A DNA stretch of 64,000 bases from Methanobacteriota archaeon. Its GTDB lineage: Archaea; Thermoplasmatota; Poseidoniia; Poseidoniales; Thalassarchaeaceae. Shown piece by piece: positions 16,534 through 64,000 of this stretch. Each line of letters starts with the position of its first letter. Position 1 is the stretch's first letter. The notes under the pieces were generated by a model. The model was not told where the DNA came from and did no database searches. It saw only the letters and a list, made by a program, of their open reading frames with translations. The DNA lies in the NCBI GenBank assembly GCA_011523055.1, contig WTHQ01000019.1, positions 25,282 through 89,281 on the forward strand, written 5' to 3'. The position numbers and the translations under genes are program-made.

Positions 16534-16582
16534 GCTTGCACTCGGCGTGTCAACAGATATAACCCTAGGCGGGATATGGGAG

Positions 16583-17835: not shown

Positions 17836-20800
17836 TCAGAAGGGCGCGTTGGGTTTCCTTCCGGGCCTTCTGGTCAATAGGATCAAGAGGCCCCCGAGAA
17901 TGACGATTAGCACGACCATCAAAACTTGGGTGGCATTTCCAGCCTCATCGACACTTGGAGACTGGAGGTTGTATTTCTTTGTGTAAGGGTCCTCAGAGGA
18001 CTCCTTCCCGTCAACCGATTCTATTGAGAAAACGATCCAAGCATCCCCTTGAGTGAGTGAGCTGAAGTTAAGGTCCAAGAATGCCGTGTCTTGGCCACCT
18101 GCAGGAATCGAGAGGACTGTACTAGCGTTGATGCCGGATAGCTCTGCTTGAGCGGAGGTCTTGTGGTCCGCCCTGACCACTACCTCTCCTGCTTCAACCA
18201 AACCATTGTTTTCTACTGTCAGCACCACAGTCTGAGTTGATCCATAGACAGGGTCCTTGCCCCCTCCCAACCATGAAACACTATCTCTATCGATCGATAT
18301 GACGGCAAACTGCGCGCTTACCTCAAGCACAACTGGTTGGTATTCAGTCTGATCGCCGCCGATGACGTACATGGTTAGCGAGAACGGCTCGTCTGTGGCA
18401 GCCTCTGGCGCACTCAGTACGACGGATACTGCTTGGCTTTCGAACGCCCCAACGGTGACCGACTGCACGCCGGTCCTCGTCCAACCTTCGGGCAAGGCAT
18501 CATCGTCAAATGAGATCGCGAACACCTCGTCCGAATTCCCATCGTTCTGGAACGTTAGCTGTAGGTTTTGCTGGGATCCCGGCCTGACGCCATACAACTC
18601 ATCGGGTTCCTCCGCTAGGCTCCAACCAGTAGTCTTTGGGACGTTGACCATTACCTCAACGTCCTCATTGACCCCATTGTCTGATGATATCTGAATGGCC
18701 ACTGCCCGTCCGTCGGGGAAGTGCCGTGCCACAGTGGAGTTCGGGGGCGTAATCTTGACACTGATGGTCTTCTGGTCGTCATCAATTGACATTAGTAGGG
18801 TCGTAGAATCGGTGTACTCCCCGGACCCGTTGTCAATTTGGATCGCCCATTCGGCTGAGTCGGTGCCTGGTACTGTGGCCCTTATGTTGAATTCATCTGA
18901 TGTCTCATGGCCCTCGTAGTCAATGACGACCTCGACGAATATTGGGTCGTAACCCCCCATACCATCGAGTTCTGCGACAAGTATTCCGGCTTCGTCGACG
19001 ATGGCGGATGTTGATGAGCCCACAGACGCCGATATGGCGCTATTTGAGATTCTATTGAACCTCAGGTCGATTGGTGCAGTCTCGAATGAGTCCGAAATGG
19101 TTGACGAGGGGATGCTGATGGACTGGCCTGCCTCGTATGCCATGGTCCTATCCTGCTGGTGGACCTCGAAATCCCCAGAGACGGTAACAGAACCCGATGG
19201 GAGTAGTACCCTGATTTCTCCGTTTGAGGGCACAGCCAGCCTCCATTCTACTGAGGGGCCTGACTCCATGAGAAGCGTTATCTCATCGGCTAGGATATCG
19301 GAGCCATCCAGGTCCATGTCGATTGAGGAGATGGAGTGGAGTCCGCCCTCGTAGTCGATCCATGAGCCATTCATCACGAGCCATCCCCCGGGCACGAGGT
19401 CAACGTCCGCTTGGCCCCCATCCACTAGATCTGCGAATATGGGGGCGAAGGCGACCAGGTTTCTGGATTCATCACGGATCTGTAGCACGTACCTGCCGGG
19501 CTCAAGATCAACGGACCATGTCCCGTCCCAATCCTGTCCCCCTCCCTTGTCAGCTGAGACTGATGGCATTGCGAATCCCTCTCTTGGGACCAATAGGATT
19601 TCAATATCGTCCGACCAGGCGGGATCCACTGATTCACCGAGGTATGTGATGCTGCCTCTGGCCGTGACCGTACCTGCTGTGAGTTCGACATCTAGGTCGA
19701 CTGGCGCGCTCTCGATGGAAGTGTTGGCTTCCATGGTCGCGAATCCGTCTTTTTCGACTGTTATAGAAAGGGTGACATTCGACCGCACCAACGTTGAGTA
19801 TGTTCCAGACTCATCAGTGGTGATTTCCACTGTGGACTGTCCGTCATCCACCAATATGGTAGCATTGGATACTCCCTCTGCGACATCTGCTTGGCCGTCC
19901 TTGTCGAAGTCCCAGAACACCTTCCCAGAGAGGGTGACCTCCCTCTGCGCTTGGAGTGTTACTTCCCTGAGCTGCCCTGCTTGAACCTGGTCAATGTGCG
20001 TCTCTTGAATGACTATCCTGACGCCACCGACCTCTTCGTCATGGCTTATGCTCCAGTTGCCTGGGACGACGTTTGCTGACGAGGAACCAGTTTCGTTCGT
20101 GATGGGCATCTTCACCGAACCCAGGCCATCCTGCGACTCGAGGAATAGTCTCTGGCCCGCAACAGGGCTGGAGGACTCAGTGTCGAGTATCGTTATGTTC
20201 AACGTGGCCATCTCTGTGAGTTCCAATGTCATTTCAGGGGACTCTGAGCCTGCGATTACCTCGACATGGGACCTGACTCCTAGCACAGTGTTGTCACCGG
20301 GCTCAAAGCCATCAATCTCAATTATTGTTTGCCCTGTTGGCAGCAGGGCGAGTATGTTGCCGTCTTCATTGGTCCTCAGCGTTGTCACTGTCACAGGATC
20401 CGTGTCAATGTTCCTGAATTTCACATCCAAATCAGGAACAGGGGCCAGGAGTTGGTCAAGGATGGTGACATTGACGACCCCCTCTGGATCAAACCCTATG
20501 TCTCTGGCAAGGGATGTTGGTTGGTAGGGAACCTGTAGATTGGTGTCACCAGTTAGGATCCTCGTGCCGAAGAGAGTCTCGTCCGGGTTAAGGATGGATG
20601 TCTCGATGACGTAGTTGCCCGGTTCCAGCTCTATGTTCGCGGATCCTGTCGTGGATGTTGTTAGGTTCCGCTCGATTCCATTTGGGTTGAGTGGGACGAT
20701 CCTGAAGTCCGCAACTACGCCACTGCCGTTCGTGAAATTGCCATCCCCTGAGGTGTCGATGAAAGCAAACAGGTCCAAGGTGCTGTTGACTGGTGTTATG

Positions 20801-23800
20801 GTTATCTCTATCGTTGTTCCTTGCTCCGTGGTGATCGGGTTGTGATCTAAATTGGAGTCCAACAAAGAGACGGTCCAATCTCCAACAGGGAGTGCTATCT
20901 CGAAGTTCCCAATTTCGTCGACTTCGGAGGTCCAGGTTACTGCAGAGGACTCGTTGGTCGCAATGACGGATAGCCTCTCCCACCCTAGGATCGAATCCTC
21001 GTAAAGGTAGGTTCCTCGGTTCACGGTAACTATTCCCTCATACACCACTCCTTTTCGAGTTACGAGGCTGATGGGTTGGTTCTCCTCAGAGGTGAAGACG
21101 ACTAGTCCATCCACCAGGTTGCCCAAGCCGACCGTCGATGTTACTGTGACGTTTTCGCCCACGGGCAATGTGAATTCGAAATTACCATCCTCATCTGCCA
21201 CGGTGGATATCTCGAAGCCATCCCATCTCGCTACGACTTCGGCGTACTGGACAAAGTCATCCGGCCCAGGTGGGGTGTCATCATCCGATGTGAGAACTGT
21301 GCCCAGGAGCTGGGAGCTTGTTCTGAATTGAACTGTTTTGTACATGTCCTGATCGAGGGCTATTCGCTCCCATACCTGGGTGTTGCCAAGGGTGTAGTTC
21401 AATAGGTATTCACCGGGTAGTAGCTCTGCTTTGTAGGTCTCAGAATCTTGGTCATAAGCCATGTCAAAGACCTCATTGTTTGAAGAGTGCTGTATCTGCA
21501 AGTCGAGACCTCTGACCAAATCTCCAGTTTCAGATTGCAACGAGATTTCAAGATCGGCTGTGACAGGTACTATCAGATCGAGGGAGATGGCTCCTGACTC
21601 GGCGTCCTCTGGCGATAGCTCCGCCACGACATCGAAGAATCCATCGGAGTCGGAGTCGTATGATATCGTGTGTGGTCTTGCCGGGATCGGTCTAATTTCG
21701 ATGGTCCCACCCTCGCTGATGTCTATGGTGCAGGGCGACGATATTTTCAGGGCACAATCACCAGGTTCGTTCTGGCTCTGTAGGTCTGTATCAGTGAGTA
21801 CCACGCTCCCTGTGGCGGGAGTGCCATCTTCTTGCAGAAGGGTGGCGGTTACAGAGAGGCCGTCCACCTGGATGAGTCGGGTTTCCGTGGCAGGGGTCCT
21901 CAGGATGGAGAACTTCTCGGAAACTTCGACCTCCTGGCCGGTGTCCATTACAACGCTTACGCTGTATTCACCAGGGATGGCGTCTGATAAGTGGAAGGTG
22001 CCCTCACGTACCATCTGACCACTGAACACTCCGTCCCCTTGGAAGACACCGTTACCGGAAATTTTTCCAGAGGCCCCGTCCTGAACTACGAATCTACCAG
22101 CTGCTGTAAATGAGGCGTTGTCATAATGGCGAATGAACTCAGACTGACCGTTGGAGACGAATCTTCCCGTTGCATTCACTGACCCGGAGACCAGTATGTC
22201 GCCACTTTGGGTCAGACAGGTCTCAGAGCCGACAGGCATGGTGTCGTTGTCGCCACAGGTAGTCGGTTCGGATCCCTCGGAAAGGGCTCCGTTCAGGATA
22301 CCGTTCCCGTTGAAGGTTCCAGTACCAGAAACTGACTGGTTATTCCTTATCGTTTGGCTCAGTGTTCCTGTGAAGCCCTCTGCCCGTGCTGGGCTCGAGG
22401 AGTCGAACTGCCCGATCCCATCGAACACTGCACTGCCCTCTCCTGCGAAGTAGAGGCCCTCGCCCTCGATCGACCCGGATGATGTCGATATTGAGTAACC
22501 GGGGTGGGAAGCAGAGGGGTCGGCTGGCGTGAGGACGACCGTGGCGTTCTTTATCGGGTCGCCTGCAAAGGAAGGGTCTCCTGCCCACTGGACCTGCCCT
22601 GTGGAGGTGACGGCGGGTACGCTAACATCAACTGCCAGGGTCGCCTCTCCGTTGCTGTGCCCCTCCTCTCCGTCAACCATGATAACCTGAGAGCCCAGGT
22701 ATGTGGTTCCTGCAACCCCGCCCAGTATTGCGGTGATTGGGTTGATGGTTCGGTCCTCGCCGTCGACTTGCTCTCGGGTGATATCGGAAAGCATGTCGAA
22801 GGCGCCCGACTCTATCTGGGCCCTTGCATCGGTTTCGTCTACTGATCCGTAGAAAGCGCTAACCCTTATCTTCCCAGATGGTATGGTCGAGGTGAATTGG
22901 CCTAGGTCATTGGCCGTCTCGGATCCGATGGGTATCCAGTAGGTCCTGGGGTCGGTGTCCATTCCTTCCTCTGAGCTGAATGCGTCCCTCTCAATCAGAA
23001 TTTTCGCATTTGGCACCGGCTCCCCTGTTTCTAGAGTCACCGTGCCGGTTAGCGTGGCACCGCTGTAATACTTGAGTATCTTGACATTGGAGTTCGCATT
23101 TCCGATCGCGTTGTAGTACTGGCTGGGGTCGACACGTGGGTCACTCCAGTTGTAAATGTCAGGTGTGCCGTCGGCATCCGAGTCCAAGTAGTCAGAACCA
23201 TCGTCGTGGTAGTTCGCCAACACGAAGTGGTTCATCATGGCCCCCGGCAGGGCGTAAGCGTTCCTGAGGGGGGTGTCGGGGGTTCCTGATCTTGACCATG
23301 TAGGTCCGGGTTGCCCAGTATTACCAGGGTCGAGACCCAAAGAGGTAGTTCCATAGCCTACGTAAATTTTCGAGAGGAATGTCTCGAAGAACTCTGGCTG
23401 TTGGATGTAGTCAATGTCCTCAAGTGCGATTATCTGACTCTGGTCTGTTATTGCTCCAGACTGTTGTCGGACGATGTCATCAAGGTACTCCTGCTCATAC
23501 TCACCCGCCGTACGGGGGATAATCGGGCCGTCGCCCCTTCGAGTGAGGTAGCTGCTCGAGATGTAGTCTTCTGGATCCAGTCCCGCTAGGGTAGTGGGGG
23601 CATAGAAAATACCCGTGGTTTGGCCTCCGTGGTAATTGTAACCATCGTAGAAAAGACCACCGAGTGGGTATAGTCTGTCATCAATGGCGAAATATCTCAC
23701 GTCGGTGCTTCTCTGGGTGGTCTCCCCTATTCTACCCTCAAAGGTCTGTACTTCATGCTCTACCTCACTTAGGTCCGAAACTAGTCCTACTATCTGGTCT

Positions 23801-26800
23801 AGGTTGAGTGTATGGGTGATGAATGCTCTGCCAACCGCCAGTTTCGCGTTGTTCCTGTGGATTCCGGTTGACAGGTCGTTGTAGTCCTCAATCAGGTCAG
23901 AAGTGTACCTGTAGTCGCCAATAATGTAGTGAGTTGGGCTGGGGGAGAAGTAACTGGATGAGGACCTAGTTGTGTTGAAGAGACGCATGGCTTCGTTTGG
24001 GTCGTCCATGCGCTCACCGACTATCTCTCCGTCCTCGAGCACGTACCAACCAGACTTGGAGGGCAGACCGGTAGTTGACAAGAATGACCCACTTAGTAGT
24101 TGGACACCACCATCCTCGTGTATGAGTGCGAGCGAACGTGCCTCCACGTCTTCTACCGACATGCTGTGTATTCTCTCTAGTTCCCTGATTTGATTATCCT
24201 GGAAATAATGGCCTAGTGCCTCCCGATTGTCTTCATCTGTGACTCCACCCATTCTGAGGGCGTTCATTACCAGCAGGGCGAGGACGTCCTCCTGGCCTGA
24301 GCTGAGTAGGATGTTCCCCGAGATTGGTATTCCAGATTGGAAATTGTCTGCGACCGTGGGGTGCTGTCCGTGGGAAAGCGCTTGGAACCCATAGTCCCAC
24401 CAAGATAGGAAGGCAGGGCGTTCTGTGAAGGCGGTTTCTGAGTCCTGTTCGGATAGCCACTCATAGGCCATGTTCCAGCCCCCTCCATTGAAGCCTGGCC
24501 CAAAGGTACCTAGGTACCAACAGCCACTCGTGCAACGCTCGTCCGGCGAGTATTGGTTGGAGTTGAGGACGGAGAAACCTAGAACCTCGTACCGCAGCAC
24601 ATCCGGCATTATCCCCTGGATGGTCTCATCAACGTCACCAGCAGAAGAGTCACCACGGGGTATCCCTGAATCTATGCCGTAGGTGGCGTGTTGGGAGAAA
24701 ACGATGAGCAGGACCATCAGCGCAGCTGGTACGCCTGGCCTTGATCGGCTAGCGGAGAAAGTGCTGTTGAACCGTGCCCTTGGAGATCCGATGCCTGTTT
24801 TCTTCCAGTGTTTGACAAATTCTGCTGGGTTGGCGTAAGCCCACATGGCAGTGAGACCTATGCCGCCTACGACTGCCATCGGGGGCCCTGCGTTGAATAT
24901 GAACCTACCAGCGGTCCAGGACATATAGGACGCGACAACTATCCATGTTCCTAGAGTGAATGATGCTGTGTCCTCGTTCCTTCCACCCCTCCACATCAGC
25001 ATAACCCCATAGCCAATCGCGGCGATGGTCACGATTGGGCCGAATGAGGCGAACAGGATGCCCCTGTCTGGAGCCTGTGCCTCTCCAATGGTTGAGAAGA
25101 CCTTGTTCTTCGAGAAGTAGAAGCCACCAGTGGTTAGGATGTCCCAACCGGCGTACCACCCAAGGGCCTGCAAGGCGTAGAGGACTCCCAACACGGTTAG
25201 CGTGAGCGTGGCAGTGGTTGTGAAGACCATGAGCCATGGTTTGTCCCTAGACGCGGAAATAACGTAACCAAGGCCGAGTGTGAACCCTAGCATGTAGATC
25301 ATGGGGGCCATGCCGCTTGGGTTTGTCAGCAGGTTCATCCCTGGCCAGATGTAGAATGGGAGCGGGATTATGATCGCGGCAGCAAGCATCTGTAGCATCG
25401 CGGATGTGATGGGAAGCGTGTCCCTCCCCCTAAACAGATTAAGGAATACTATGCCCGAGTACCCCAGGAAGAGGATTCCTGGCGCGTAGACGAATCCCTT
25501 CCAAGCAAGCCCAGCGGTTGCGAATGAGATTCCTGAGAGGGTCGCGTAGACCATGGTGGTCCTCTGCGAGTGCCACATGAACCTGATTCCCGCGAGGATG
25601 TACAAAGGGTTCCAAGAGGTTCTAGAGAATAGACGATCCTGCCTCATGCCCATCATGGACCTGACCCACCAGTAGAATCCCAGTGTGAGGAAGAACATGG
25701 CGAATGAATCGTGGTCTGCCAACCCGAAGGTCGAGTGAGTGATGTGGCCCGGCATGAATGCTATCAACCAAGCAGATGCGATGCCTGCCAGAGGGGAGTG
25801 GAACCTTCTGGCCATCGCCGCCACGGGGAGCACTATTAGCGCGCCCCAGATTGCAGGCTGGGCTTCCACTGACCACCAAACTGCTTCCGAGAGAGACATG
25901 TCCGCCACCCACGACAGAAATATTCCTCCGAGGGCGAGTGACCATGAGAAGAGGGGCGGCCGGGGGTTGAGCCCCCCCACAGGGTAATTGCGGTCTGCGT
26001 CAAACACAAGGTGGGCCCTCTCATAGGCGACGTAATCGATGATTCGCTTCATGTACCATGGATCAGATCCCCCAGACATGTCCCACTCCCCGATAATCGA
26101 GGCGTTCATGGCAGGAATTACGTTCCACACGACTCGGACGATGAAACCTACTACGAGGGCCATGCCGACCAGGATGGCGTAGTTGTGATTTTGCCACCAC
26201 CTTCTGAGATGTGAAGGTTCCCTGAGGGGGGCCATAGCACCTAGATGTCCCCTTGAGGCCAGAACAATGATGCCGACATTCGACCAGAAGGTAATGAGCA
26301 ACCAAAGGATCATCGGATAAGAGCCGTCGTCTGTCAGAGCAGCAGGGAAACCGGATACTCCGACGTCACTCAATCTCCCAAGAGTGTAAATTACCCAATT
26401 CAGAGATGCCACGGATGCTAGGACATTCCATCTTTCTGCTTTGAATAGGCAGACGACCATGACCACAGCAGCGGAGAAAAGGCCCCAGAAGGGCCCGAGA
26501 AAGGCGCCATTGTCGTAGACCGATGGATCATCTATGGTAGCCAGCCAGACCATGGGAACCAGGAGTGAGGTCATAATCGCACCGGCAGCGAGATGGATGG
26601 ATTTGTTCTTGATGTCGAACGGCAGCTCCGAGAGCATGCCCGACCTGCTATTTCTGTCAAGGGTCTTGGACAGCATCAACGAGACGTAGAGGGCGCCCAT
26701 TACCATAACGGAGGCCATTGAAGAGAACCTAGCGCCCAGATAGGCGCGGGCGGCATCGGTCTGTGAGCCGTCCGGAATCTCTGAATTCAGCGCGTATATC

Positions 26801-27210
26801 ACAGCGAAGTAAATTCCGATGATGCTTCCGACGAGGAAATTCGCCTCAATCGGCCTGCCCTTCGAAGTCAGGACATGTGTCCCCATGGAAGTGAGGAGGA
26901 ATGTTATGCATAGCGCTGCAGGGGCGACAAGGGAGGCTCCAAGAGAGGTAGCTATGAGAATGGTAGGGGCTATCCAATCGTCGAGTTTCGTCACAGAGGG
27001 GTGCTCCGAGCTAATCCTCCCGAAAGCCGCGCCAGTGGCAGCCACGGCTGGAAGAGCGAGGAGGGCTATTTCGTCCGTCCATCCATTCAGTCCCGAGACC
27101 TGTGCAGTGATCAAGAACACAAAAAAGGCGGCTGCCAACAGGATTGGGCCGCCAAGTATGCCTTTCATCGAGGCTGCATCGGTGTTGCCGTTTTTGTCTA
27201 TCATTTTCAT
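17836..27210 (-). CDS. aglB: giant (3124 aa) membrane protein: extra N-terminal polytopic domain + AglB/STT3 oligosaccharyltransferase core + ~2000-aa Ig-like/beta-sandwich ectodomain + C-terminal TM anchor
   Basis: STT3 signature WWDYGFQ (codons at 24388-24402). EL1-type motif GSDPWYMKRIIDYVAYERAHLVFDADRNYP. TIxE-like TIGEAQAPD. More than 20 predicted TM helices in the first ~850 aa. Long ectodomain of repeated ~100-aa beta-sandwich units. Ends ...QVLMVVLIVILGGLLILLTRRPGRKPNAPF. Confidence 0.8.
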   Translation of the reverse strand: MKMIDKNGNTDAASMKGILGGPILLAAAFFVFLITAQVSGLNGWTDEIALLALPAVAATGAAFGRISSEHPSVTKLDDWIAPTILIATSLGASLVAPAALCITFLLTSMGTHVLTSKGRPIEANFLVGSIIGIYFAVIYALNSEIPDGSQTDAARAYLGARFSSMASVMVMGALYVSLMLSKTLDRNSRSGMLSELPFDIKNKSIHLAAGAIMTSLLVPMVWLATIDDPSVYDNGAFLGPFWGLFSAAVVMVVCLFKAERWNVLASVASLNWVIYTLGRLSDVGVSGFPAALTDDGSYPMILWLLITFWSNVGIIVLASRGHLGAMAPLREPSHLRRWWQNHNYAILVGMALVVGFIVRVVWNVIPAMNASIIGEWDMSGGSDPWYMKRIIDYVAYERAHLVFDADRNYPVGGLNPRPPLFSWSLALGGIFLSWVADMSLSEAVWWSVEAQPAIWGALIVLPVAAMARRFHSPLAGIASAWLIAFMPGHITHSTFGLADHDSFAMFFLTLGFYWWVRSMMGMRQDRLFSRTSWNPLYILAGIRFMWHSQRTTMVYATLSGISFATAGLAWKGFVYAPGILFLGYSGIVFLNLFRGRDTLPITSAMLQMLAAAIIIPLPFYIWPGMNLLTNPSGMAPMIYMLGFTLGLGYVISASRDKPWLMVFTTTATLTLTVLGVLYALQALGWYAGWDILTTGGFYFSKNKVFSTIGEAQAPDRGILFASFGPIVTIAAIGYGVMLMWRGGRNEDTASFTLGTWIVVASYMSWTAGRFIFNAGPPMAVVGGIGLTAMWAYANPAEFVKHWKKTGIGSPRARFNSTFSASRSRPGVPAALMVLLIVFSQHATYGIDSGIPRGDSSAGDVDETIQGIMPDVLRYEVLGFSVLNSNQYSPDERCTSGCWYLGTFGPGFNGGGWNMAYEWLSEQDSETAFTERPAFLSWWDYGFQALSHGQHPTVADNFQSGIPISGNILLSSGQEDVLALLVMNALRMGGVTDEDNREALGHYFQDNQIRELERIHSMSVEDVEARSLALIHEDGGVQLLSGSFLSTTGLPSKSGWYVLEDGEIVGERMDDPNEAMRLFNTTRSSSSYFSPSPTHYIIGDYRYTSDLIEDYNDLSTGIHRNNAKLAVGRAFITHTLNLDQIVGLVSDLSEVEHEVQTFEGRIGETTQRSTDVRYFAIDDRLYPLGGLFYDGYNYHGGQTTGIFYAPTTLAGLDPEDYISSSYLTRRGDGPIIPRTAGEYEQEYLDDIVRQQSGAITDQSQIIALEDIDYIQQPEFFETFLSKIYVGYGTTSLGLDPGNTGQPGPTWSRSGTPDTPLRNAYALPGAMMNHFVLANYHDDGSDYLDSDADGTPDIYNWSDPRVDPSQYYNAIGNANSNVKILKYYSGATLTGTVTLETGEPVPNAKILIERDAFSSEEGMDTDPRTYWIPIGSETANDLGQFTSTIPSGKIRVSAFYGSVDETDARAQIESGAFDMLSDITREQVDGEDRTINPITAILGGVAGTTYLGSQVIMVDGEEGHSNGEATLAVDVSVPAVTSTGQVQWAGDPSFAGDPIKNATVVLTPADPSASHPGYSISTSSGSIEGEGLYFAGEGSAVFDGIGQFDSSSPARAEGFTGTLSQTIRNNQSVSGTGTFNGNGILNGALSEGSEPTTCGDNDTMPVGSETCLTQSGDILVSGSVNATGRFVSNGQSEFIRHYDNASFTAAGRFVVQDGASGKISGNGVFQGDGVFSGQMVREGTFHLSDAIPGEYSVSVVMDTGQEVEVSEKFSILRTPATETRLIQVDGLSVTATLLQEDGTPATGSVVLTDTDLQSQNEPGDCALKISSPCTIDISEGGTIEIRPIPARPHTISYDSDSDGFFDVVAELSPEDAESGAISLDLIVPVTADLEISLQSETGDLVRGLDLQIQHSSNNEVFDMAYDQDSETYKAELLPGEYLLNYTLGNTQVWERIALDQDMYKTVQFRTSSQLLGTVLTSDDDTPPGPDDFVQYAEVVARWDGFEISTVADEDGNFEFTLPVGENVTVTSTVGLGNLVDGLVVFTSEENQPISLVTRKGVVYEGIVTVNRGTYLYEDSILGWERLSVIATNESSAVTWTSEVDEIGNFEIALPVGDWTVSLLDSNLDHNPITTEQGTTIEITITPVNSTLDLFAFIDTSGDGNFTNGSGVVADFRIVPLNPNGIERNLTTSTTGSANIELEPGNYVIETSILNPDETLFGTRILTGDTNLQVPYQPTSLARDIGFDPEGVVNVTILDQLLAPVPDLDVKFRNIDTDPVTVTTLRTNEDGNILALLPTGQTIIEIDGFEPGDNTVLGVRSHVEVIAGSESPEMTLELTEMATLNITILDTESSSPVAGQRLFLESQDGLGSVKMPITNETGSSSANVVPGNWSISHDEEVGGVRIVIQETHIDQVQAGQLREVTLQAQREVTLSGKVFWDFDKDGQADVAEGVSNATILVDDGQSTVEITTDESGTYSTLVRSNVTLSITVEKDGFATMEANTSIESAPVDLDVELTAGTVTARGSITYLGESVDPAWSDDIEILLVPREGFAMPSVSADKGGGQDWDGTWSVDLEPGRYVLQIRDESRNLVAFAPIFADLVDGGQADVDLVPGGWLVMNGSWIDYEGGLHSISSIDMDLDGSDILADEITLLMESGPSVEWRLAVPSNGEIRVLLPSGSVTVSGDFEVHQQDRTMAYEAGQSISIPSSTISDSFETAPIDLRFNRISNSAISASVGSSTSAIVDEAGILVAELDGMGGYDPIFVEVVIDYEGHETSDEFNIRATVPGTDSAEWAIQIDNGSGEYTDSTTLLMSIDDDQKTISVKITPPNSTVARHFPDGRAVAIQISSDNGVNEDVEVMVNVPKTTGWSLAEEPDELYGVRPGSQQNLQLTFQNDGNSDEVFAISFDDDALPEGWTRTGVQSVTVGAFESQAVSVVLSAPEAATDEPFSLTMYVIGGDQTEYQPVVLEVSAQFAVISIDRDSVSWLGGGKDPVYGSTQTVVLTVENNGLVEAGEVVVRADHKTSAQAELSGINASTVLSIPAGGQDTAFLDLNFSSLTQGDAWIVFSIESVDGKESSEDPYTKKYNLQSPSVDEAGNATQVLMVVLIVILGGLLILLTRRPGRKPNAPF

Positions 27211-33654: not shown

Positions 33655-36378
33655 TTGTTCCCCCCCGGGCGTAACGATAACATGTCTGGCAACCGCTCTG
33701 GAACCTATCTCATAGTTGGAATTATCCTAATTGGATTGAACGCATTTGCATTCGCACCGTACGTGTCGGACGCCACATTGGAAACAGTTCGAGATACAGT
33801 TGAGTCAGGTTATGATGACGAGGAGGATTACTCAGGGGATGATGAGTGGTCTGAATCAGTATCGCAGCGGACGTACTTCGCATACTCAATGACTAACCCG
33901 TCAGATGTGTTGGAAGGAAATGCTCCGGAATTTACCAAAATGGGCCCATTTATCTACAATGTCACAGTCCACAATGACCTGCTGGGATGGAACTCAGAAA
34001 ATGCAACAATAACATACTCTTCATATGACGTGTTCGAGCATTGTGCTGATTGCGTGTGGGAGGATTCCGACGGAGTGGAACATCAATCGCTTCCCGAGGA
34101 TACGCAAGTTACCAATCAAAACATCCTGTGGAACACCCAATTGATAGCCGGCATCTCTACCGGAATCCAATACGGTGAGCAGTTTGCCAAGGCAGGATTC
34201 ACCAAGAGCATGATGACCTATGACATGATGTATCTTGCACCGAGCATGGACACTGCGGATCAGATCTCAGAACTTGTGTCTGGCGCAGAAGCCGCTATTG
34301 ACGCCCAAACGGGTGGTCAGCTGGATGCACTAACGGTTTCGGCGATGGCTGACGCTATGGTTCTTGACGGTTTCTTCGCAAGTTGGAATGCAACCCTTGA
34401 TGACGCCCAGAGACAAGGCCTTGGAGCCGACGTGATGTCACCTGACTTCAGCGCTGCGGCAGGTTCGATAATGAATAGCGCCGTAGACGCAAGCAGCCAA
34501 GAATGCATGGCCTTGACCTGCGACTATGGACCATGGATGGTCGCAGCATGGGGTGAGCCCAGCTCAGTGATTACCCCCCTCCGTGCGGACCTACTGGGAT
34601 ATGGCACCACCGATCCTGTTGAAATGACTCTTATGGATTGGGCGGTGTACGCAGGCGCTGCGTCCATGATGCAGGCGAACGGAGCTGGGGTCCCCCCGGA
34701 GCTTGCCTCGAACGAATCAAACTCACACAAAGTTGGGGTTCTCACAGGCTACGATTTCAAGTCAAGCAGCGGTGAAATCTACGTGGATGAACTCAATTAC
34801 TTCCTGTTCGGAGTGAATGAAGCCACAGGATACCCAGCGGGGATGCTCGCCGAACAGGACCTGAGTGGAATTCCCCTCTACGGAGTGGTTCTCTCGTTGC
34901 TACCCCTCACTGCTAGCCCCCCAGACTACATGGGTTACATCGAGGAGTACAGCATACCTGGCATCCTAACTATGCAGGGCGTCGCTGGTTGGTCATCAGG
35001 CTGGCAGCTTGCAGAGACCCATTTCCCAATGCGCGTTGTCAACCCCGCAGCCTCTGGAACAATGGATGCCGACACGTGGTGGAAGATGTCTTTCGGAGGG
35101 GAAGAGCCTCTGCTAGGCGGAAACATAGCTGTGGGACTAAACAGGAACATGGCGGCAGGAGAGGGTTCAAACCTCGCACTAGAAAAGGTAGATGAGATTC
35201 TCTACGATGGGCCGTATGCATTGACAAACTCTGACATGGCAACGATGTTCATGTACGGGGAGTTGTCAGGAATGACATTCCCCATGACAGCTAGTGGCCC
35301 TGGAGTCGGCGGGGTCCAGAGCGTCTGGGATGATTCCCATGTCGCAGGCATGTACGGAATTTCTGAATCCGATGCTTCCCTATTGAGGTCATGGGTCAAC
35401 GATCTGATGTTCGGACAGGTAGTCGGCCTGCTATTGAACTTCCAATATGGTGCTGGCCCTCTAACCACCCAATCAATCAGCAACTGGCTGTATGGCTGGT
35501 CGGACCCTGTCCTTGTGGGCCTATACGGCGCTGAGAACAGTTGGGTCAGCCTTGAGACAAATGCCACCTACTATGGGAGCGGAGGGCTTTCAACCGGCGA
35601 TTACAGCGTCTATGAGGAAACCACGTCCGCCGATGGAGGGACCCCTGGGCTGCGGGTCGCGGAAGGCTACCTCGATTCCGAAACGGGCGAGATCTACGGA
35701 ATGGGGCCTGACATGCCATGGAGATCGGATTCAGCTGAGGAGGCCACTCTCGGTCTGTTGTCTAGTCACGTTGGAAATGACCTAACCGATCAATCAGGAG
35801 CGATCGGTGGCATCGTCAATGACCCAGATGAACCTCAATTGGTGAACTTAGTGGGCTATGCTCTCGCAGAGACAGAAGTGATTGGCGACATCGTGTTCAA
35901 GGACATTCCAATGGTTCATCACAGAGTATCTCTAGAACCAACGGAGAACCAAATCCAAGCCAAGCTAATCGGCTCTGGCACGGTTATCGACGTTCTTCCA
36001 GGCGCCTTGCCAGTCTACTTTGAATCCAACGTTGACATCTACGTCGAGGAAATAACGGGTATCGCGATGTATGGGAAGAGCAAATCGACCTTCCACCTCG
36101 ACCTGAGGGGTCCTGGGATGATGGATCCAGTTCTAAACGTGGACACGCATCCAGTGTTCGAGATCCATACCGCTAGCGAGATCGGGGACGATGATGCAGG
36201 AAGTTTCGTGTCCGCCGTCATTGACAACCAGGGAATGTTCTTCTGGACTGACTTCGGGTCAGGGGCTGATGGTTCAACAGATGACCTCGTCGACTTCTTG
36301 GCATTCGGAATCTATGTCTTGGCGGTCGGGCTTCTAGTAGCGGGAGCCAGGGGCCGCTCGTCCACAGAAGCCGAGTAA
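33655..36378 (+). CDS. hypothetical large surface protein (907 aa) with N-terminal signal/TM and C-terminal TM anchor
   Basis: N-terminus GTYLIVGIILIGLNAFAFAPYVS. C-terminus LVDFLAFGIYVLAVGLLVAGARGRSSTEAE. No recognisable catalytic motif. Start may be Met at 33682. Confidence 0.6.
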   Translation: MFPPGRNDNMSGNRSGTYLIVGIILIGLNAFAFAPYVSDATLETVRDTVESGYDDEEDYSGDDEWSESVSQRTYFAYSMTNPSDVLEGNAPEFTKMGPFIYNVTVHNDLLGWNSENATITYSSYDVFEHCADCVWEDSDGVEHQSLPEDTQVTNQNILWNTQLIAGISTGIQYGEQFAKAGFTKSMMTYDMMYLAPSMDTADQISELVSGAEAAIDAQTGGQLDALTVSAMADAMVLDGFFASWNATLDDAQRQGLGADVMSPDFSAAAGSIMNSAVDASSQECMALTCDYGPWMVAAWGEPSSVITPLRADLLGYGTTDPVEMTLMDWAVYAGAASMMQANGAGVPPELASNESNSHKVGVLTGYDFKSSSGEIYVDELNYFLFGVNEATGYPAGMLAEQDLSGIPLYGVVLSLLPLTASPPDYMGYIEEYSIPGILTMQGVAGWSSGWQLAETHFPMRVVNPAASGTMDADTWWKMSFGGEEPLLGGNIAVGLNRNMAAGEGSNLALEKVDEILYDGPYALTNSDMATMFMYGELSGMTFPMTASGPGVGGVQSVWDDSHVAGMYGISESDASLLRSWVNDLMFGQVVGLLLNFQYGAGPLTTQSISNWLYGWSDPVLVGLYGAENSWVSLETNATYYGSGGLSTGDYSVYEETTSADGGTPGLRVAEGYLDSETGEIYGMGPDMPWRSDSAEEATLGLLSSHVGNDLTDQSGAIGGIVNDPDEPQLVNLVGYALAETEVIGDIVFKDIPMVHHRVSLEPTENQIQAKLIGSGTVIDVLPGALPVYFESNVDIYVEEITGIAMYGKSKSTFHLDLRGPGMMDPVLNVDTHPVFEIHTASEIGDDDAGSFVSAVIDNQGMFFWTDFGSGADGSTDDLVDFLAFGIYVLAVGLLVAGARGRSSTEAE

Positions 36379-43299: not shown

Positions 43300-43632
43300 A
43301 TGTCGACTCTATCAGACAAAAAATGCGTACCATGCCAAGGGGGCGTCCCTTCCCTCTCAGAAACTGAGATAATGCAGTTGATGCCAGAACTCAATCAATC
43401 TTGGAAGGTGATTGACAATCACCATCTCAAGAGATCATTTGGATTCCCGGATTTCTCCTCTGCCCTCTCATTCGTGAACCAAGTAGGAGAAATCTGTGAA
43501 GAACAAGGACACCATGCTGACTTTGAGCTTGGATGGGGCCGGGTCGTGGTCCTGATTTGGACTCACAAGATAGACGGTCTCGTGGAGTCTGATTTCATAT
43601 TAGCCTCGAAAATAGACGAAATCGGTGTATGA
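43300..43632 (+). CDS. pterin-4a-carbinolamine dehydratase (PCD/DCoH)
   Basis: PCD signature EEQGHHADFELGWGRVVVLIWTHKIDGL. Start set at MSTLSDKK; the ORF track starts earlier in a frame overlapping the upstream gene. Confidence 0.75.
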   Translation: MSTLSDKKCVPCQGGVPSLSETEIMQLMPELNQSWKVIDNHHLKRSFGFPDFSSALSFVNQVGEICEEQGHHADFELGWGRVVVLIWTHKIDGLVESDFILASKIDEIGV

Positions 43633-43918
43633 GATGGATGATGGGGGTCTGCGCATTCATGCGTTCATATGCACGAACAATCGCGATCCTGCCCATCCGA
43701 AGAAATCCTGTGGTTCCAGAGGGGCATTGGATATATTGTCACAACTAAAGAAGATGGCTAGAGAGTCTGGATTGAATGATGTTAGGATCAATAAATCTGG
43801 CTGTCTGGGCAAGTGCGAGGAGGGGCCCGCATGCGTTGTGTACCCAGAGGGGAATTGGCACAGACTCTCCCTAGACGAAGATGAGATGAGGAATTTCGTT
43901 CTCGGTCTGAGTGAGTAA
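43625..43918 (+). CDS. thioredoxin-like [2Fe-2S] ferredoxin
   Basis: Cys at positions 16, 29, 60 and 64 (spacing 13 and 4), matching the Trx-like 2Fe-2S ferredoxin ligand pattern. Contains GCLGKCEEGP. Confidence 0.6.
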   Translation: MYEMDDGGLRIHAFICTNNRDPAHPKKSCGSRGALDILSQLKKMARESGLNDVRINKSGCLGKCEEGPACVVYPEGNWHRLSLDEDEMRNFVLGLSE

Positions 43919-43954: not shown

Positions 43955-45016
43955 CTACAGCGCGAAGTACGCTTCTATACCCGGAACATTGGAAACGGCA
44001 TCACCGTATGTCTGCAAGTGCATCTCAGCATTTGTGGGGATTAGTTCCTCAGTGTCCAACAAGTCCCTGAGAATCTCTTTACCTACTTGATCATCACTCA
44101 GCGAGGCTAGTGCCTGCTGAATTGTAATTACTGTCATAGCATCCATGTTGGCTGGGTTGTAAATTGCAGGATGGCTTGGGGCCTGGGCGAAAGGCGGGAG
44201 CATAACAACCTCGTCCCTCTCGAGGCACCAGTCGTAAGCGAGATCACCTTCGCAATGAGAGTCGAATGTCGTGTCCTTAACTAATGCAACGTCGCCAGTT
44301 CCATCCATCATGCACCTCATTGCACCCATGTAGGAGGAATATGGAGTACTTCCCCTGGGTATGCTTGAGTCTTCGGAGAAGAAATTTTGCACTGTTGCCT
44401 CCAAGGAGTCGATCTCCTCCGGATCACCAACGACTTGCGCATATCCATTTCCAATGAGGTAGCCCATAGGAATCAACATGCCCGCGGATTTCAGCCACCC
44501 AGTGTGACATGACGTTTTACCCTCCATCTTGGCAAATGGGTCTGTATCAGGATCGTCGTCTGAGTATGCTGATGCAATGTCGGAGTCGGCCCTTACCCAA
44601 GCCGTGGCGTTGTAGTACGTTCGTCCATCAGACTTCGTCTCAGCCGCCAACACATCCAGGCCATAAACCTCCCATGCCAACCACGCAGCAGCGCCATCCA
44701 TGAATCCTATGTCCGCATTGCCCTTGTCTATCGCCTCGATCATTGATCCAGAATCTGGGACAGGATAGATCTCCACGCCCCATTGATCACCTAGGATTAG
44801 GCTCAACTTGTCGGCTAGATGTTGGGGGTTGGTATCCAAATTGCTGTAGTCTTCCTGCACTTGGTAGGCGATTGTAAGGCAATTCTTCCCTTCACTGCAT
44901 TCGCCGTCATCTTGCTCACTTATGCCCATGAATACACCGACCATTAAGATCAGCAAAATCACAATTGAAATCCACTGTTTTTCTTTGGACGCCGTAGTCA
45001 AACCAGACGTTGCCAT
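43955..45016 (-). CDS. membrane-anchored single-lobe transferrin-family protein
   Basis: Motif-by-motif match to a transferrin lobe: TYYNATAWV (cf. FYYAVAVV), KTSCHTGWLKSAGMLIPMGYL (cf. [20 protein letters not shown]), NFFS, GDVALVKDTTF (cf. GDVAFVKHST), AQAPSHPAIY (cf. AQVPSHTVVA). Putative Fe ligands Asp/Tyr/Tyr/His conserved. N-terminal TM WISIVILLILMVGVFMGI. Confidence 0.7.
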   Translation of the reverse strand: MATSGLTTASKEKQWISIVILLILMVGVFMGISEQDDGECSEGKNCLTIAYQVQEDYSNLDTNPQHLADKLSLILGDQWGVEIYPVPDSGSMIEAIDKGNADIGFMDGAAAWLAWEVYGLDVLAAETKSDGRTYYNATAWVRADSDIASAYSDDDPDTDPFAKMEGKTSCHTGWLKSAGMLIPMGYLIGNGYAQVVGDPEEIDSLEATVQNFFSEDSSIPRGSTPYSSYMGAMRCMMDGTGDVALVKDTTFDSHCEGDLAYDWCLERDEVVMLPPFAQAPSHPAIYNPANMDAMTVITIQQALASLSDDQVGKEILRDLLDTEELIPTNAEMHLQTYGDAVSNVPGIEAYFAL

Positions 45017-45029
45017 GGGGCGGCGAAAA

Positions 45030-45062
45030 TGTGATCTTCAATAAAGATTAGGTTAGCCTAAA
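45030..45062 (-). promoter_or_regulatory. putative archaeal TATA/BRE promoter for the transferrin-like gene
   Basis: AT-rich AAAAATTATAAATTATTTG about 20-45 nt upstream of the start at 45016. On the minus strand it reads TTTATAATTTTT. Confidence 0.25.
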
Positions 45063-45082
45063 AATTATAAATTATTTGTGAT

Positions 45083-46570
45083 TCACACACTCGGATCAGC
45101 TAAAATAGGGTTTTCAACATACAGACTCGGTCCGCTGCTGAGATAGCACATGACTCCTCTCCGACTCCGGGAGTCTTCTGGAGTCGAGTCGTCCCCAGAT
45201 GCACAGGATCCGGTACAACCATCTGCGAATGCTATGAAAACTCGGCCATCCCTGTCTATGTGTAGGTCATTGAAGTCCAGGAGGTTCCTATTGGACCCCC
45301 CGATATCCCTGCAATCACCACTATTCAGGCAAATGCTCCCAATTTGTACGGGATCCGATGTGACTCTATGTGTCTGAAACACTGGATTGGCATCCAGAGC
45401 GTTCAAGCTGTAAGTTACGTAGAGGTGGTATGTCACGTTGGAGTTTGCGTAATGGGCATTCCCATCCCATGGCTCTCCATCTAGGTTTGGTTGACCAATT
45501 TGGGATGAATTCTCGCTACCGAGGTATGTGATGGCTATCCTTCCTGGGTCTCCTGCGTCCACTTGAGGGAAAACAGACGAGATAATCTCCACGGGGCTTA
45601 TCCTGATGCTATCTTGCTCCCATGTCTCCCCAGAATCCGTACTCCTCGACATGTAGACCCCCTCGTCGGCACCGGTCCAGATGTGGTAAGCGTTGGACTG
45701 TGTGTCGGTTGCTACTTCTGAGTTCTTACGGGGGTACGGGGTGCCTGAATCCTCACCCATGGTCTCTGCAAACCAAGTAAACCCATTGTCCTTTGAAACG
45801 ATGACCGTCGGGGTCTCCACCCTCGGGGTGACGTACACCGTCCCGTCAGGTGCAGAGGTGATTGCTCCATGGAGTCCGCCATCCGTGGTGGCAAGTCCGA
45901 TTACCTGGCCTCCAGCCTCGAATGACGCGCCCCCGTCAAAGCTCGTGAAACAGAAAATTCCTGCCAATTTGTTGTAGCAGTAGTAGACCGCTTGATCATA
46001 AAAGGACTGTGATACTTGGCCAAAGGCCCCATAGCCACTCGTCGTCCAAGGACCTGTTGCCAATTTGATATGATCATTTATTGGAGTCGTTCCTGAATCG
46101 TGGGGGTTACCGATCCAAGTGTCGCCATCATCATCGCTCCAACAAATCCAAGAGGTTTCCAGACCTTGCATTTGAACGTTGAATATCCTATCTGTGACTG
46201 GGTCAACCCAACCCCATGGGTCATTGGTTTGAAATGCGCACATTGGTCCGGTGACATCCTCCCAGGTCTCGCCATAATCACATGATCTCATGACTTTTTC
46301 AAATGCGATAAAGAATACGCATCCCGTTGAGGTCACCCCGATACTGGGCTCTGCTCCGTCTTGGCCCACGTCACTTAGGTTGAATACCATCCTGATTGGC
46401 TCCATGTCAATCGGCAAACCATCAGCTCCAGTTACGAACACGCCCTCCATCTCTGTTGGGGGGGTCGGCTCGGCGAGCTGCTTGCTGTTTTGAAGGCAAC
46501 CCGATGCCGGCATCAGGGCTAACATCAGGGCAAATGAGACTGCGATCCCTTGTCGGTTCACAGGTTGCAT
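45083..46570 (-). CDS. secreted BNR/Asp-box repeat (sialidase-like beta-propeller) protein, probable lipoprotein
   Basis: Signal peptide with Cys (ALMLALMPASGC). Asp-box motifs SRSTDSGETW, CDYGETWEDV, DDDGDTWIG, DNGFTWF, SFDGGASF. Confidence 0.7.
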   Translation of the reverse strand: MQPVNRQGIAVSFALMLALMPASGCLQNSKQLAEPTPPTEMEGVFVTGADGLPIDMEPIRMVFNLSDVGQDGAEPSIGVTSTGCVFFIAFEKVMRSCDYGETWEDVTGPMCAFQTNDPWGWVDPVTDRIFNVQMQGLETSWICWSDDDGDTWIGNPHDSGTTPINDHIKLATGPWTTSGYGAFGQVSQSFYDQAVYYCYNKLAGIFCFTSFDGGASFEAGGQVIGLATTDGGLHGAITSAPDGTVYVTPRVETPTVIVSKDNGFTWFAETMGEDSGTPYPRKNSEVATDTQSNAYHIWTGADEGVYMSRSTDSGETWEQDSIRISPVEIISSVFPQVDAGDPGRIAITYLGSENSSQIGQPNLDGEPWDGNAHYANSNVTYHLYVTYSLNALDANPVFQTHRVTSDPVQIGSICLNSGDCRDIGGSNRNLLDFNDLHIDRDGRVFIAFADGCTGSCASGDDSTPEDSRSRRGVMCYLSSGPSLYVENPILADPSV

Positions 46571-63607: not shown

Positions 63608-64000
63608 GCCACTCCAGTTTGCACAGCCCATAATCGACTATACAGCCCAGATAGTTGTATCAATTCATCGTGGGAGCCCATCTCGGTTATTCCCCCTGAA
63701 TCCAGTACTGCGATTCTATCGGCATTACGAACCGTAGATAGCCTGTGCGCGATTATGATAGTTGTCCTGTTCTTAGAGAGTTTCTCTATCGATCTTTGCA
63801 GAGCTGCCTCTGTTTCGTTATCGACATTGCTGGTCGCTTCATCCAGCACGAGTATCGGGGCATCCTTCAGGACCGCTCTGGCGATCGCTAACCTCTGCCT
63901 CTGACCGCCTGACAGCCTGTGTCCGTCTTCTCCAACTTCCGTCTCCCAGCCATCGGGGAGGGTCCGTATGAACTCCATCGCCTCTGCTATGTTTGCTGAG
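63604..64000 (-). CDS. ABC transporter ATP-binding/permease protein, C-terminal part (gene continues past the window end)
   Basis: ABC signature [14 protein letters not shown]. Walker [11 protein letters not shown]-loop IIIAHRLST. The reading frame stays open to position 64000. Confidence 0.8.

Follow-up and report, generated by a model that had tools for sequence, protein, structure and literature searches.

A single-lobe transferrin-type protein of marine Poseidoniales archaea and its predicted role as the iron-binding component of a PhnCE-type importer

Transferrin is the textbook iron carrier of animals, and its origin is unresolved. The eukaryotic transferrins (Pfam PF00405), which include serotransferrin, lactoferrin, ovotransferrin and melanotransferrin, are compared here with the product of an archaeal gene that lies at 43955-45016 on the minus strand of a 64,000-nucleotide stretch of contig WTHQ01000019.1, referred to below as the window, from a member of the Thalassarchaeaceae (order Poseidoniales, Marine Group II or MGII). 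The 353-amino-acid (aa) product of this gene, the focal protein, belongs to an archaeal family that is about 26-32% identical to the eukaryotic transferrins per lobe and that has in common with them the lobe fold, the Asp/Tyr/Tyr/His ligands, the CHTG motif, an anion site made up of a Thr, a basic residue and the N-terminus of a helix, and the Cys pair equivalent to C118-C194. Unlike the eukaryotic proteins, the focal protein lacks the transferrin-specific insertions and most of the disulfides, consists of a single lobe of ~310 residues, has Lys instead of Arg in the anion site, carries a predicted membrane anchor, for which more distant orthologs have a lipobox, and has no dilysine pH trigger. 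Furthermore, the family appears to be coupled to an ATP-binding cassette (ABC) importer and a repressor operator, not to receptor-mediated endocytosis. What is rated as new is a transferrin lobe that, judging from its sequence and gene context, would serve as the binding protein of an ABC transporter in archaea.

A second comparison is with PhnD, PtxB and HtxB, which act with PhnCE (PF12974, TIGR03431, TIGR01097). These proteins belong to the same superfamily, with a compact architecture and homologous pocket positions, and the archaeal relatives of the focal gene likewise stand in operons with a PhnE-equivalog permease and a PhnC-like ATPase. In contrast to PhnD, the archaeal family falls below the PhnD thresholds, is ~15% identical to E. 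coli PhnD (EcPhnD; reference sequence taken from NC_000913.3), has the phosphonate-binding residues replaced by the transferrin set, is found without carbon-phosphorus (C-P) lyase genes nearby and appears to belong to a metal-type regulon. The functionally closest analogue is FbpA/FutA of the FbpABC/FutABC systems, a class II binding protein of a different sequence family, which coordinates naked Fe(III) through Tyr residues together with a synergistic anion and passes it on to an ABC importer. The ligand set of FbpA is His/Glu/Tyr/Tyr with phosphate or carbonate, and its likeness to the archaeal family is convergent, not homologous, at the residue level. FutABC has been described in a review (PMC7676907), in which carbonate-dependent Fe(III) capture by the phytotransferrin ISIP2a/Fea1 (PF07692) is also summarized (McQuaid 2018). 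Phytotransferrin resembles the archaeal protein in being surface-anchored in marine plankton, while it belongs to an unrelated fold family and, in diatoms, is internalised by endocytosis.

The gene and the overall layout of its product are as follows.

43955-45016, minus strand: coding sequence of the 353-aa transferrin-type binding protein, with an ATG start and its stop codon at 43955-43957 (open reading frame listing, Pfam and PDB matches)
44921-44977, minus strand: predicted N-terminal transmembrane anchor or uncleaved signal, residues ~14-32, WISIVILLILMVGVFMGIS (hydropathy scan, AlphaFold2)
43958-44884, minus strand: two-domain class II periplasmic-binding-protein/transferrin-lobe fold, residues ~45-353 (AlphaFold2 and Foldseek)

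Membership in the transferrin family had been proposed from sequence motifs in a preliminary description of the window, and all of these motifs are present in the focal protein in the order given there: GFMDGAAAW at residue 104, TYYNATAWV at 133, KTSCHTGWLKSAGMLIPMGYL at 167, NFFS at 211, YSSYMGAMRCM at 226, GDVALVKDTTF at 241 and AQAPSHPAIY at 277. The proposal is well supported by profile and database comparisons. The Pfam profile Transferrin matches two stretches of the protein with 65.9 bits against a gathering cutoff of 20.3 (E 4.8e-18), and all 120 listed homologs carry PF00405. Among 96 phmmer matches in the PDB, the best 60 are all members of the transferrin family (best E 1e-22) and comprise transferrins, lactoferrins, ovotransferrins, melanotransferrin and inhibitor of carbonic anhydrase. 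Against a family hidden Markov model (HMM) derived from 90 monolobal sequences, human transferrin reaches 102 bits and EcPhnD 12 bits. An exhaustive phmmer search over 1.84 billion cluster representatives returned just 311 matches at E<=1e-3, and this search is therefore not drawing in the very large generic PhnD family.

The AlphaFold2 model of the focal protein is of high confidence (pLDDT 88.6, pTM 0.80). Transferrin N-lobes are at the top of its Foldseek matches (1nft, E 3.5e-16, with 23-24% identity across ~365 columns; probability 1.00, TM-score 0.5-0.65), and they are closely followed by PtxB, a phosphite-binding protein of the PhnD family (18% identity, ~300 columns). The focal protein cannot be told apart from PtxB by its fold alone, but it can by its sequence and by the residues of the site. 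It is best regarded as a transferrin-type member of the PhnD/transferrin superfamily. It forms one lobe of ~310 residues, in keeping with the monolobal architecture first described, and does not have the bilobal architecture that is typical, although not universal, of transferrins.

The residues of the predicted iron and anion site fall at the following positions, in which hTf denotes human serotransferrin.

44696-44698, minus strand: codon of Asp107, equivalent to hTf Asp63 (Fe ligand), invariant in 121 of 121 aligned sequences
44612-44614, minus strand: codon of Tyr135, equivalent to hTf Tyr95 (Fe ligand) and aligned to Tyr93 of E. coli PhnD, invariant in the alignments
44456-44518, minus strand: anion-site block KTSCHTGWLKSAGMLIPMGYL, from alignments to transferrin
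44330-44332, minus strand: codon of Tyr229, equivalent to hTf Tyr188 (Fe ligand), where PhnD has His157; invariant in the alignments
44171-44173, minus strand: codon of His282, equivalent to hTf His249 (Fe ligand), where PhnD has Asp205; invariant in the alignments

The site was mapped by phmmer alignment to ovotransferrin and with the family HMM against human serotransferrin, the reference sequence of which was checked against PDB 5dyh_A (698 aa; one mismatch, corrected). These comparisons place D107, Y135, Y229 and H282 at the four Fe(III) ligand positions, as had been claimed. In the anion site, Thr172 is equivalent to hTf Thr120, Lys176 to Arg124 and Ser177-Ala178-Gly179, at the helix N-terminus, to Ser125-Ala126-Gly127; the retention of Thr and the exchange of Arg for Lys noted earlier are thus both confirmed. 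C170 and C235 align to hTf C118 and C194, which form a disulfide pair in transferrin. The four ligands, T172, K176, S177-A178-G179, C170 and C235 are invariant in the query and 120 homologs, down to ~45% identity, and the run C170, H171, T172, G173, K176, S177 and G179 is invariant throughout the focal family. Diverged archaeal paralogs lose site residues (the two lobes of P0122 read D-Y-T-K-F-D and A-H-T-D-P-E), and therefore the invariance within the focal orthogroup argues for function, not merely fold. Ichthyosporean transferrin lobes in which the ligand set is complete likewise have Lys in place of the anion-site Arg. Of the pH-sensitive dilysine pair of serum transferrin, the second Lys is missing: hTf K296 aligns to Gln in the focal protein and to Gly in most orthologs.

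As it is annotated, the gene would encode a PhnD-type phosphonate-, phosphite- or organophosphate-binding protein of a PhnCE phosphonate importer. The Pfam profile Phosphonate-bd (PF12974), a member of the same clan as Transferrin, is in fact the top match of the focal protein, with 70.3 bits against a cutoff of 27 over profile positions 6-240 of 242. A generic binding protein as best profile had been named in the preliminary description as a sign that the transferrin assignment was mistaken, and the lead of 4 bits over Transferrin weighs, marginally, in that direction; but both Pfam profiles are passed, while the NCBIfam thresholds for the PhnD equivalog TIGR03431 (27.8 vs 261.1) and for the phosphate/phosphite/phosphonate subfamily TIGR01098 (46.6 vs 112.05) are missed by wide margins. 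The Pfam scan at E<=10 found nothing besides PF12974 and PF00405 in the focal protein, and no FbpA-type binding-protein family. A tblastn search with EcPhnD over the window and 106 loci (1.65 Mb) found none of the transferrin-like genes. An hhalign comparison to EcPhnD gave 64% probability over 79 columns only, a weak match for which the input was a mixed alignment of mono- and bilobal sequences, and the comparison with PhnD relied instead on the monolobal family HMM and a multiple alignment. In that alignment, the EcPhnD columns Y93, S127-T128-S129, H157 and D205, which we take to be the 2-aminoethylphosphonate-binding residues of the PhnD structure, correspond to Tyr, K176/S177/A178, Y229 and H282 in the family. 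The equivalent of Tyr93 alone is retained among these positions. The pocket appears to be homologous to the PhnD pocket, with its chemistry predicted to have switched to the transferrin set.

Names and gene context have also been in favour of a phosphonate function. JGI and NCBI use phosphonate names for such proteins, PtxB is among the top structural matches, the permeases encoded beside relatives pass the NCBIfam PhnE equivalog cutoff (218-227 bits vs 216.7), PhnC is the best, though sub-threshold, NCBIfam match of the relatives' ATPases, and a GDPD gene is a frequent upstream neighbour. Tully 2019 listed "the transport of phosphonates" among MGII core traits (PMC6336850), a statement that plausibly refers to the transferrin-like PhnCDE-like system. 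Against this, the GDPD protein is without a signal peptide, tblastn for the C-P lyase core PhnG/H/I/J gave no match in the same 1.65 Mb, and neighbours and a shared operator, described below, link the family to Fea1, flavodoxin and DtxR. Phosphonate or a related compound as the substrate is considered very unlikely.

The preferred interpretation, which is judged to be likely, is that the focal protein is a surface-tethered Fe(III)-(bi)carbonate-binding protein of a metal-repressed uptake regulon. Its sole strongly hydrophobic segment in a hydropathy scan (residues ~14-32), which is preceded by Lys11 and Lys13, coincides with a helix at 11-32 in the AlphaFold2 model, consistent with the N-terminal transmembrane segment or signal anchor of the preliminary description. 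In more distant orthologs a lipobox (LAGC/LSGC) replaces the transmembrane helix of the focal subgroup at the same position. With one or the other of these two means of tethering, the family is predicted to be held outside the membrane, as expected of an archaeal binding protein. The single lobe would act there as a substrate-binding protein, in which Asp107, Tyr135, Tyr229 and His282 would hold Fe(III) together with synergistic (bi)carbonate, and Thr172, Lys176 and the N-terminus of the helix at residues 177-179 would hold the anion. The genes would be on when iron is scarce, under the control of a DtxR-family repressor at a TTAGG-N4-CCTAA operator overlapping the promoter, and the regulon would further include bilobal transferrin-like paralogs, a FEA1-related lipoprotein, a PhnC-like ATPase and a PhnE-type permease. 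Docking of the loaded protein on the PhnE-type permease would be followed by transfer of its iron for ATP-driven import, for which a PhnCE partner is presumed in the focal genome. Import by docking on an ABC transporter fits the absence of the pH-sensitive dilysine trigger that is used by endocytosed transferrin.

The link to an importer comes from the relatives of the focal gene. A scan of GTDB species representatives, with one genome per species, yielded 455 loci of the family, and for the best 80 of these (L015-L094) the genes within 10 kb of the transferrin-like gene were counted. A PhnC-like gene is present in 45 of the 80 loci and a PhnE-like gene in 39; a GDPD gene is likewise found in 39, a Fea1 gene in 26 and a flavodoxin gene in 10, while a gene for a GSDH-family lipoprotein, usually directly downstream, is found in 57. 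The arrangement varies with distance from the focal protein. P0109 (51% identity) heads an operon of transferrin-like, ABC_tran and BPD_transp_1 genes, with a 10-nt gap to the ATPase gene, and in the ~50% identity group tandem monolobal genes precede PhnCE. P0089 (about 57-58% identity) is divergent from ABC_tran and BPD_transp_1 genes, in the vicinity of a Fea1-domain protein, a flavodoxin and a Peripla_BP_2/FecCD transporter. P0068 is divergent from a DtxR-type repressor gene (Fe_dep_repress and FeoA domains) and is itself followed by ABC_tran, BPD_transp_1 and an HmuY-like gene. In the 62-68% identity group, a bilobal paralog heads a Fea1-Tf2-PhnC-PhnE cluster a few kb from the monolobal gene. 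Gene context thus shows the Poseidoniales family as the probable binding component of a PhnCE-type ABC importer in these relatives. The extracellular capture of ferric iron suggested in the preliminary description is supported, by gene context and the shared operator, as far as a role in iron uptake is concerned, while the protein would act not in free-standing capture but as the binding protein of this importer.

The FEA1-related lipoprotein (Pfam Fea1; NCBIfam NF038033, 348 bits for L009 4699-5955, minus strand) is a homolog of the algal Fea1/ISIP2a family; its gene adjoins transferrin-like genes and has the same TTAGG-N4-CCTAA operator upstream. Therefore, both eukaryote-type families of carbonate/Fe(III)-binding proteins are found side by side in an archaeon. 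The GSDH-family lipoprotein (pyrroloquinoline quinone glucose/sorbosone dehydrogenase-like, PF07995) has its gene on the strand of the monolobal gene, which it follows at a distance of <=80 nt in most loci having it, as in L009 (9086-10264, plus strand) and L006 (11078-12283, plus strand), and is probably co-transcribed with the transferrin-like gene. It could be a redox partner for iron release.

The operator and promoter elements of the focal gene are the following.

45048-45061, palindromic, not assigned to a strand: operator TTAGGCTAACCTAA, putative DtxR-family repressor site, 32-45 nt upstream of the ATG; family motif TTTAGG-N4-CCTAAA
45040-45071, minus strand: promoter region with A/T-rich, TATA-like elements TTTATAA (45065-45071) and CTTTATT (45040-45046) flanking the operator, as read from the sequence

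The motif TTAGG-N4-CCTAA occurs once in the 64-kb window (0.01 expected), and that occurrence lies in the focal promoter, where the flanking A/T-rich elements may provide the archaeal TATA box. The palindrome, usually TTTAGGnnnnCCTAAA, is present 30-50 nt upstream of nearly all orthologs and is directly followed by AAATTTTAT, which is also A/T-rich and TATA-like. A count over 1.26 Mb from 84 related loci gave 155 exact sites, compared with 0.85 in shuffled sequences, and 144 of the 155 stand at most 160 nt upstream of one of four kinds of gene, namely a transferrin-like gene (69), Fea1 (43), phnC (30) or a DtxR-type gene (2). In L014, where the DtxR-family gene is at 7214-7873, and in L093, three copies are found between the divergent repressor gene and the transferrin-like operon, and one of these is identical to the focal site. 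The operator arms equal the outer arms of the classical DtxR/IdeR box consensus, with different spacing; the classical 19-bp DtxR box itself was rejected as the operator, the conserved element being a 14-16 bp palindrome with a 4-nt spacer. On the strength of this promoter element, the focal gene, though physically apart from the cluster, clearly seems to belong to the same regulon, and we infer that the cognate regulator is most likely a DtxR-family metal-dependent repressor and that iron is its probable metal.

The identity of the metal bears on a further alternative, in which the protein would bind another hard metal or a chelate, such as Mn(III), Al, Ti, V or Fe with an organic synergistic anion, as part of an Mn or general metal regulon. 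The best NCBIfam match of the DtxR-type repressor encoded next to the family is MntR (99 bits, below the cutoff), ahead of DtxR. The anion site has Lys for Arg, transferrins bind other tri- and tetravalent ions, and PDB transferrin entries with Yb, Al, Cr and V adducts are among the matches of the focal protein. On the other hand, D-Y-Y-H with Thr and a basic residue constitutes the canonical Fe(III)-carbonate site, the ichthyosporean lobes with Lys at the Arg position keep all of their ligands, and co-regulated Fea1 together with neighbouring flavodoxin and FecCD genes are classic low-iron genes. A metal or chelate other than Fe(III)-carbonate is thus regarded as unlikely.

At the focal locus itself, the neighbours of the gene are a BNR-like lipoprotein (45083-46570), a 97-aa Cys-rich open reading frame (ORF) and pterin-4a-carbinolamine dehydratase; the GSDH neighbour is lost from the window. 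No transporter gene lies beside the focal gene, and no PhnE, Fea1, GSDH or DtxR homolog is found anywhere in the 64-kb window, so that the adjacent iron-uptake genes sought on the basis of the preliminary description are lacking here, while Fea1, flavodoxin, FecCD and PhnCE genes do occur near orthologs. A partial generic ABC ATPase at the end of the window (63679-63951, minus strand) is merely 29% identical to the PhnC-like partners and is not considered to be one. A PhnE homolog, P0455, which is encoded beside a 701-aa bilobal paralog on ~1.5-Mb contigs belonging to an ENA series that also includes one of the focal contigs, could not be tied to the focal genome.

These observations raise the alternative that the focal genome has no ABC partner for the protein, which would then act as a surface iron concentrator or store, in the manner of algal Fea1/ISIP2a, with iron passed to another route, e.g., reduction followed by a divalent-metal transporter. 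In line with this idea, PhnCE genes are lacking not only in the window but also within 10 kb in the closest relatives (71-75% identity group), it is in many genomes the bilobal paralog, not the monolobal ortholog, that directly heads the PhnCE operon, and the extracellular GSDH-family lipoprotein encoded downstream in many loci is a possible redox partner. That lipoprotein gene is lost at the focal locus, however, and the 49-59% identity groups have the monolobal gene in an operon with, or divergent from, PhnCE. In addition, the operator is common to the monolobal gene and phnC, and archaea are without endocytosis. Storage or concentration of iron at the surface with no ABC partner is considered quite unlikely, and delivery to a PhnCE-type importer remains the preferred interpretation.

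An artefactual origin of the gene was rejected. Public marine assemblies contain an identical copy of the focal protein in 68 blocks, in which its neighbours are also the same (e.g., GCA_038111775.1), and a chance ORF is ruled out by these many exact copies and by the conserved family. Eukaryotic contamination or an assembly chimera is ruled out by archaeal markers on both sides and by the same synteny in many assemblies. The archaeal context first described is evident from genes for aRF1, a NOG1-type GTPase, aIF2-beta, dUTPase, CDP-archaeol synthase, aTrm56 and class I LysRS in the window. The closest match among GTDB r232 species representatives is 75% identical, despite the exact copies in dozens of assemblies; the focal species, or its contig, seems not to be represented there.

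Prokaryotic members of the transferrin family had been described as rare in the preliminary description, which is wrong for the Poseidoniales: in addition to the 455 GTDB loci, a word-index search lists 616 clusters (90% identity) of the focal family. The best 80 GTDB loci are essentially all from Poseidoniales (Poseidoniaceae and Thalassarchaeaceae) metagenome-assembled genomes (MAGs) and single-cell genomes. Three contigs labelled as bacterial carry a transferrin-like gene of 50-74% identity, namely L016 (Pedosphaera sp. MAG), L051 (Rhodobacteraceae MAG) and L091 (Yoonia sp. MAG). Because L016 and L051 show the MGII synteny of GDPD, transferrin-like and GSDH genes, and because phnC and phnE in the Tf-PhnC-PhnE arrangement of L091 share 99-100% identity with their counterparts on the L012 scaffold, where an ortholog of the Poseidoniales family is also encoded, these labels are probably binning errors and the contigs probably mis-binned archaeal DNA.

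Bilobal transferrin-like paralogs of 660-711 aa are present in the same archaeal order, and therefore lobe duplication happened in archaea too. P0121 keeps D-Y-T-K-Y-H in both lobes, while in the other bilobal representatives checked (P0122, P0123, P0127, P0129 and P0130) iron ligands have been lost, in part or entirely, from one lobe or from both, a degeneration that parallels that of melanotransferrin and inhibitor of carbonic anhydrase in animals. These paralogs often directly head a PhnC-PhnE operon (e.g., L098 5073-7178). The nearest eukaryotic relatives of the family are multi-lobe proteins of Ichthyosporea (Chromosphaera, Creolimax, Amoebidium, Ichthyophonus, Sphaeroforma and Abeoforma) and amphioxus LTF; the anion-site Lys and a second Cys pair (C255/C264) are common to the ichthyosporean lobes and the archaeal proteins.

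A more distant group, lacking Cys and reading D-Y-T-G-Y-H, is found in Nitrosopumilus and Heimdallarchaeota (P0246, P0201), where the binding proteins, annotated as PhnD, share operons with an ATPase and a permease (L095 6001-8706 and L096 6001-8831, respectively). Its members have the same four putative Fe ligands and Thr and are ~30% identical to the Poseidoniales family, while they differ from it in having no conserved Cys pairs, Gly at the Arg/Lys position and no TTAGG-N4-CCTAA operator at their loci. Phosphonate-bd is the sole Pfam profile that they match, any Transferrin signal being faint at most. The "phosphonate" annotation of these binding proteins may deserve re-examination too. CbtA/CbtB cobalt transporter genes lie a few genes upstream of the Nitrosopumilus operon.

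The relationship of these groups was examined with neighbour-joining trees of individual lobes, rooted on EcPhnD. PhnD is followed by the Cys-less archaeal group and then by a split between the Thermoplasmatota proteins and the eukaryotic lobes, and in this point estimate archaeal sequences are never nested within metazoan or ichthyosporean lobes. Bootstrap values for the deep nodes were 10-33% with all 89 lobes. A 57-sequence tree, composed of 52 canonical-ligand lobes, the Cys-less group and EcPhnD, had the same topology, with 50% support for a monophyletic eukaryotic group, 61% for a monophyletic archaeal group and 68% for both together to the exclusion of the Cys-less group; these values are too weak to claim a direction of transfer. 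Mean identity is 20% between PhnD and the Cys-less group, 30% between the Cys-less group and Thermoplasmatota, and 28% between Thermoplasmatota and the eukaryotic lobes, while it is 21% between the Cys-less group and eukaryotic lobes and 15% between PhnD and eukaryotic lobes. Because of this gradient of identity and the retention of an apparently ancestral coupling to an ABC transporter, a prokaryote-first history is favoured, not proven, in which the archaeal family would be the sister to or source of eukaryotic transferrins. An early transfer from holozoans to archaea, followed by capture by a PhnCE operon, is also possible.

According to the summary in PMC7676907, transferrin and phytotransferrin have a shared ancestry among periplasmic proteins that bind phosphonate (McQuaid 2018). 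The literature searched contained no description of an archaeal or MGII transferrin, although the tree of McQuaid 2018 might already include these archaeal sequences. NCBI names some members "PhnD/SsuA/transferrin family substrate-binding protein", and the proteins of the family are thus already in databases, functionally uninterpreted. It is tentatively proposed, with somewhat less than even confidence, that eukaryotic transferrins have their prokaryotic sister group, or their source, in the Poseidoniales proteins and that "phosphonate transport" in MGII is carbonate-dependent Fe(III) uptake co-regulated with a Fea1 homolog. With such an origin, the family would represent a living intermediate, a PhnD-like ABC binding protein with an Asp-Tyr-Tyr-His/carbonate site, the CHTG motif, the core disulfide and even bilobal duplicates, and the iron site would have been acquired before or independently of its recruitment by holozoan eukaryotes.

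At the level of sequence, the family provides an abundant intermediate that combines a transferrin iron site with a compact PhnD-like scaffold and a predicted coupling to a PhnCE-type importer, and such an intermediate makes the hypothesis of a phosphonate-binding-protein origin for transferrin testable by biochemistry and phylogenetics. If the proposal is true, a core MGII trait would be reassigned from phosphorus to iron acquisition, and a low-iron regulon would be defined in archaea, consisting of transferrin-like proteins, the FEA1-related lipoprotein, the PhnCE-type importer, the DtxR-type repressor and the operator. Furthermore, iron uptake by these very abundant marine archaea would depend on carbonate chemistry, and carbonate- and pH-sensitive iron acquisition would extend from phytoplankton to marine archaea. 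The findings also point to a systematic annotation problem, in that the name "phosphonate ABC transporter substrate-binding protein" is given to proteins with a transferrin site.

Several other genes of the window deserve mention. The 97-aa Cys-rich ORF (43625-43918, plus strand) is convergent with the focal gene, and its position is kept in other assemblies (94 aa, no Pfam match); its C...C...CLGxCxxGPxC pattern gives the impression of a thioredoxin-like [2Fe-2S] ferredoxin. A 907-aa protein encoded at 33655-36378 (plus strand) matches the CD36 scavenger-receptor family PF01130, normally eukaryotic, with 39.3 bits against a cutoff of 26.5, and other assemblies (L002-L005) have the same match precomputed for its ortholog. 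Giant ORFs follow one another on the minus strand (17836-27210, 12286-16752 and 3002-8746); this run, with a subtilase alongside (16583-17815, minus strand), probably encodes large surface or secreted proteins. One of these, of 3124 aa, combines an STT3 oligosaccharyltransferase N-terminal domain with CarboxypepD_reg domains, an unusual fusion for STT3, while others have a beta-helix (1488 aa) or TSP3 repeats (1914 aa). Finally, an 841-aa STAND-type NTPase (AAA_16/NB-ARC) fused to TPR repeats is encoded at 9698-12223 on the minus strand.

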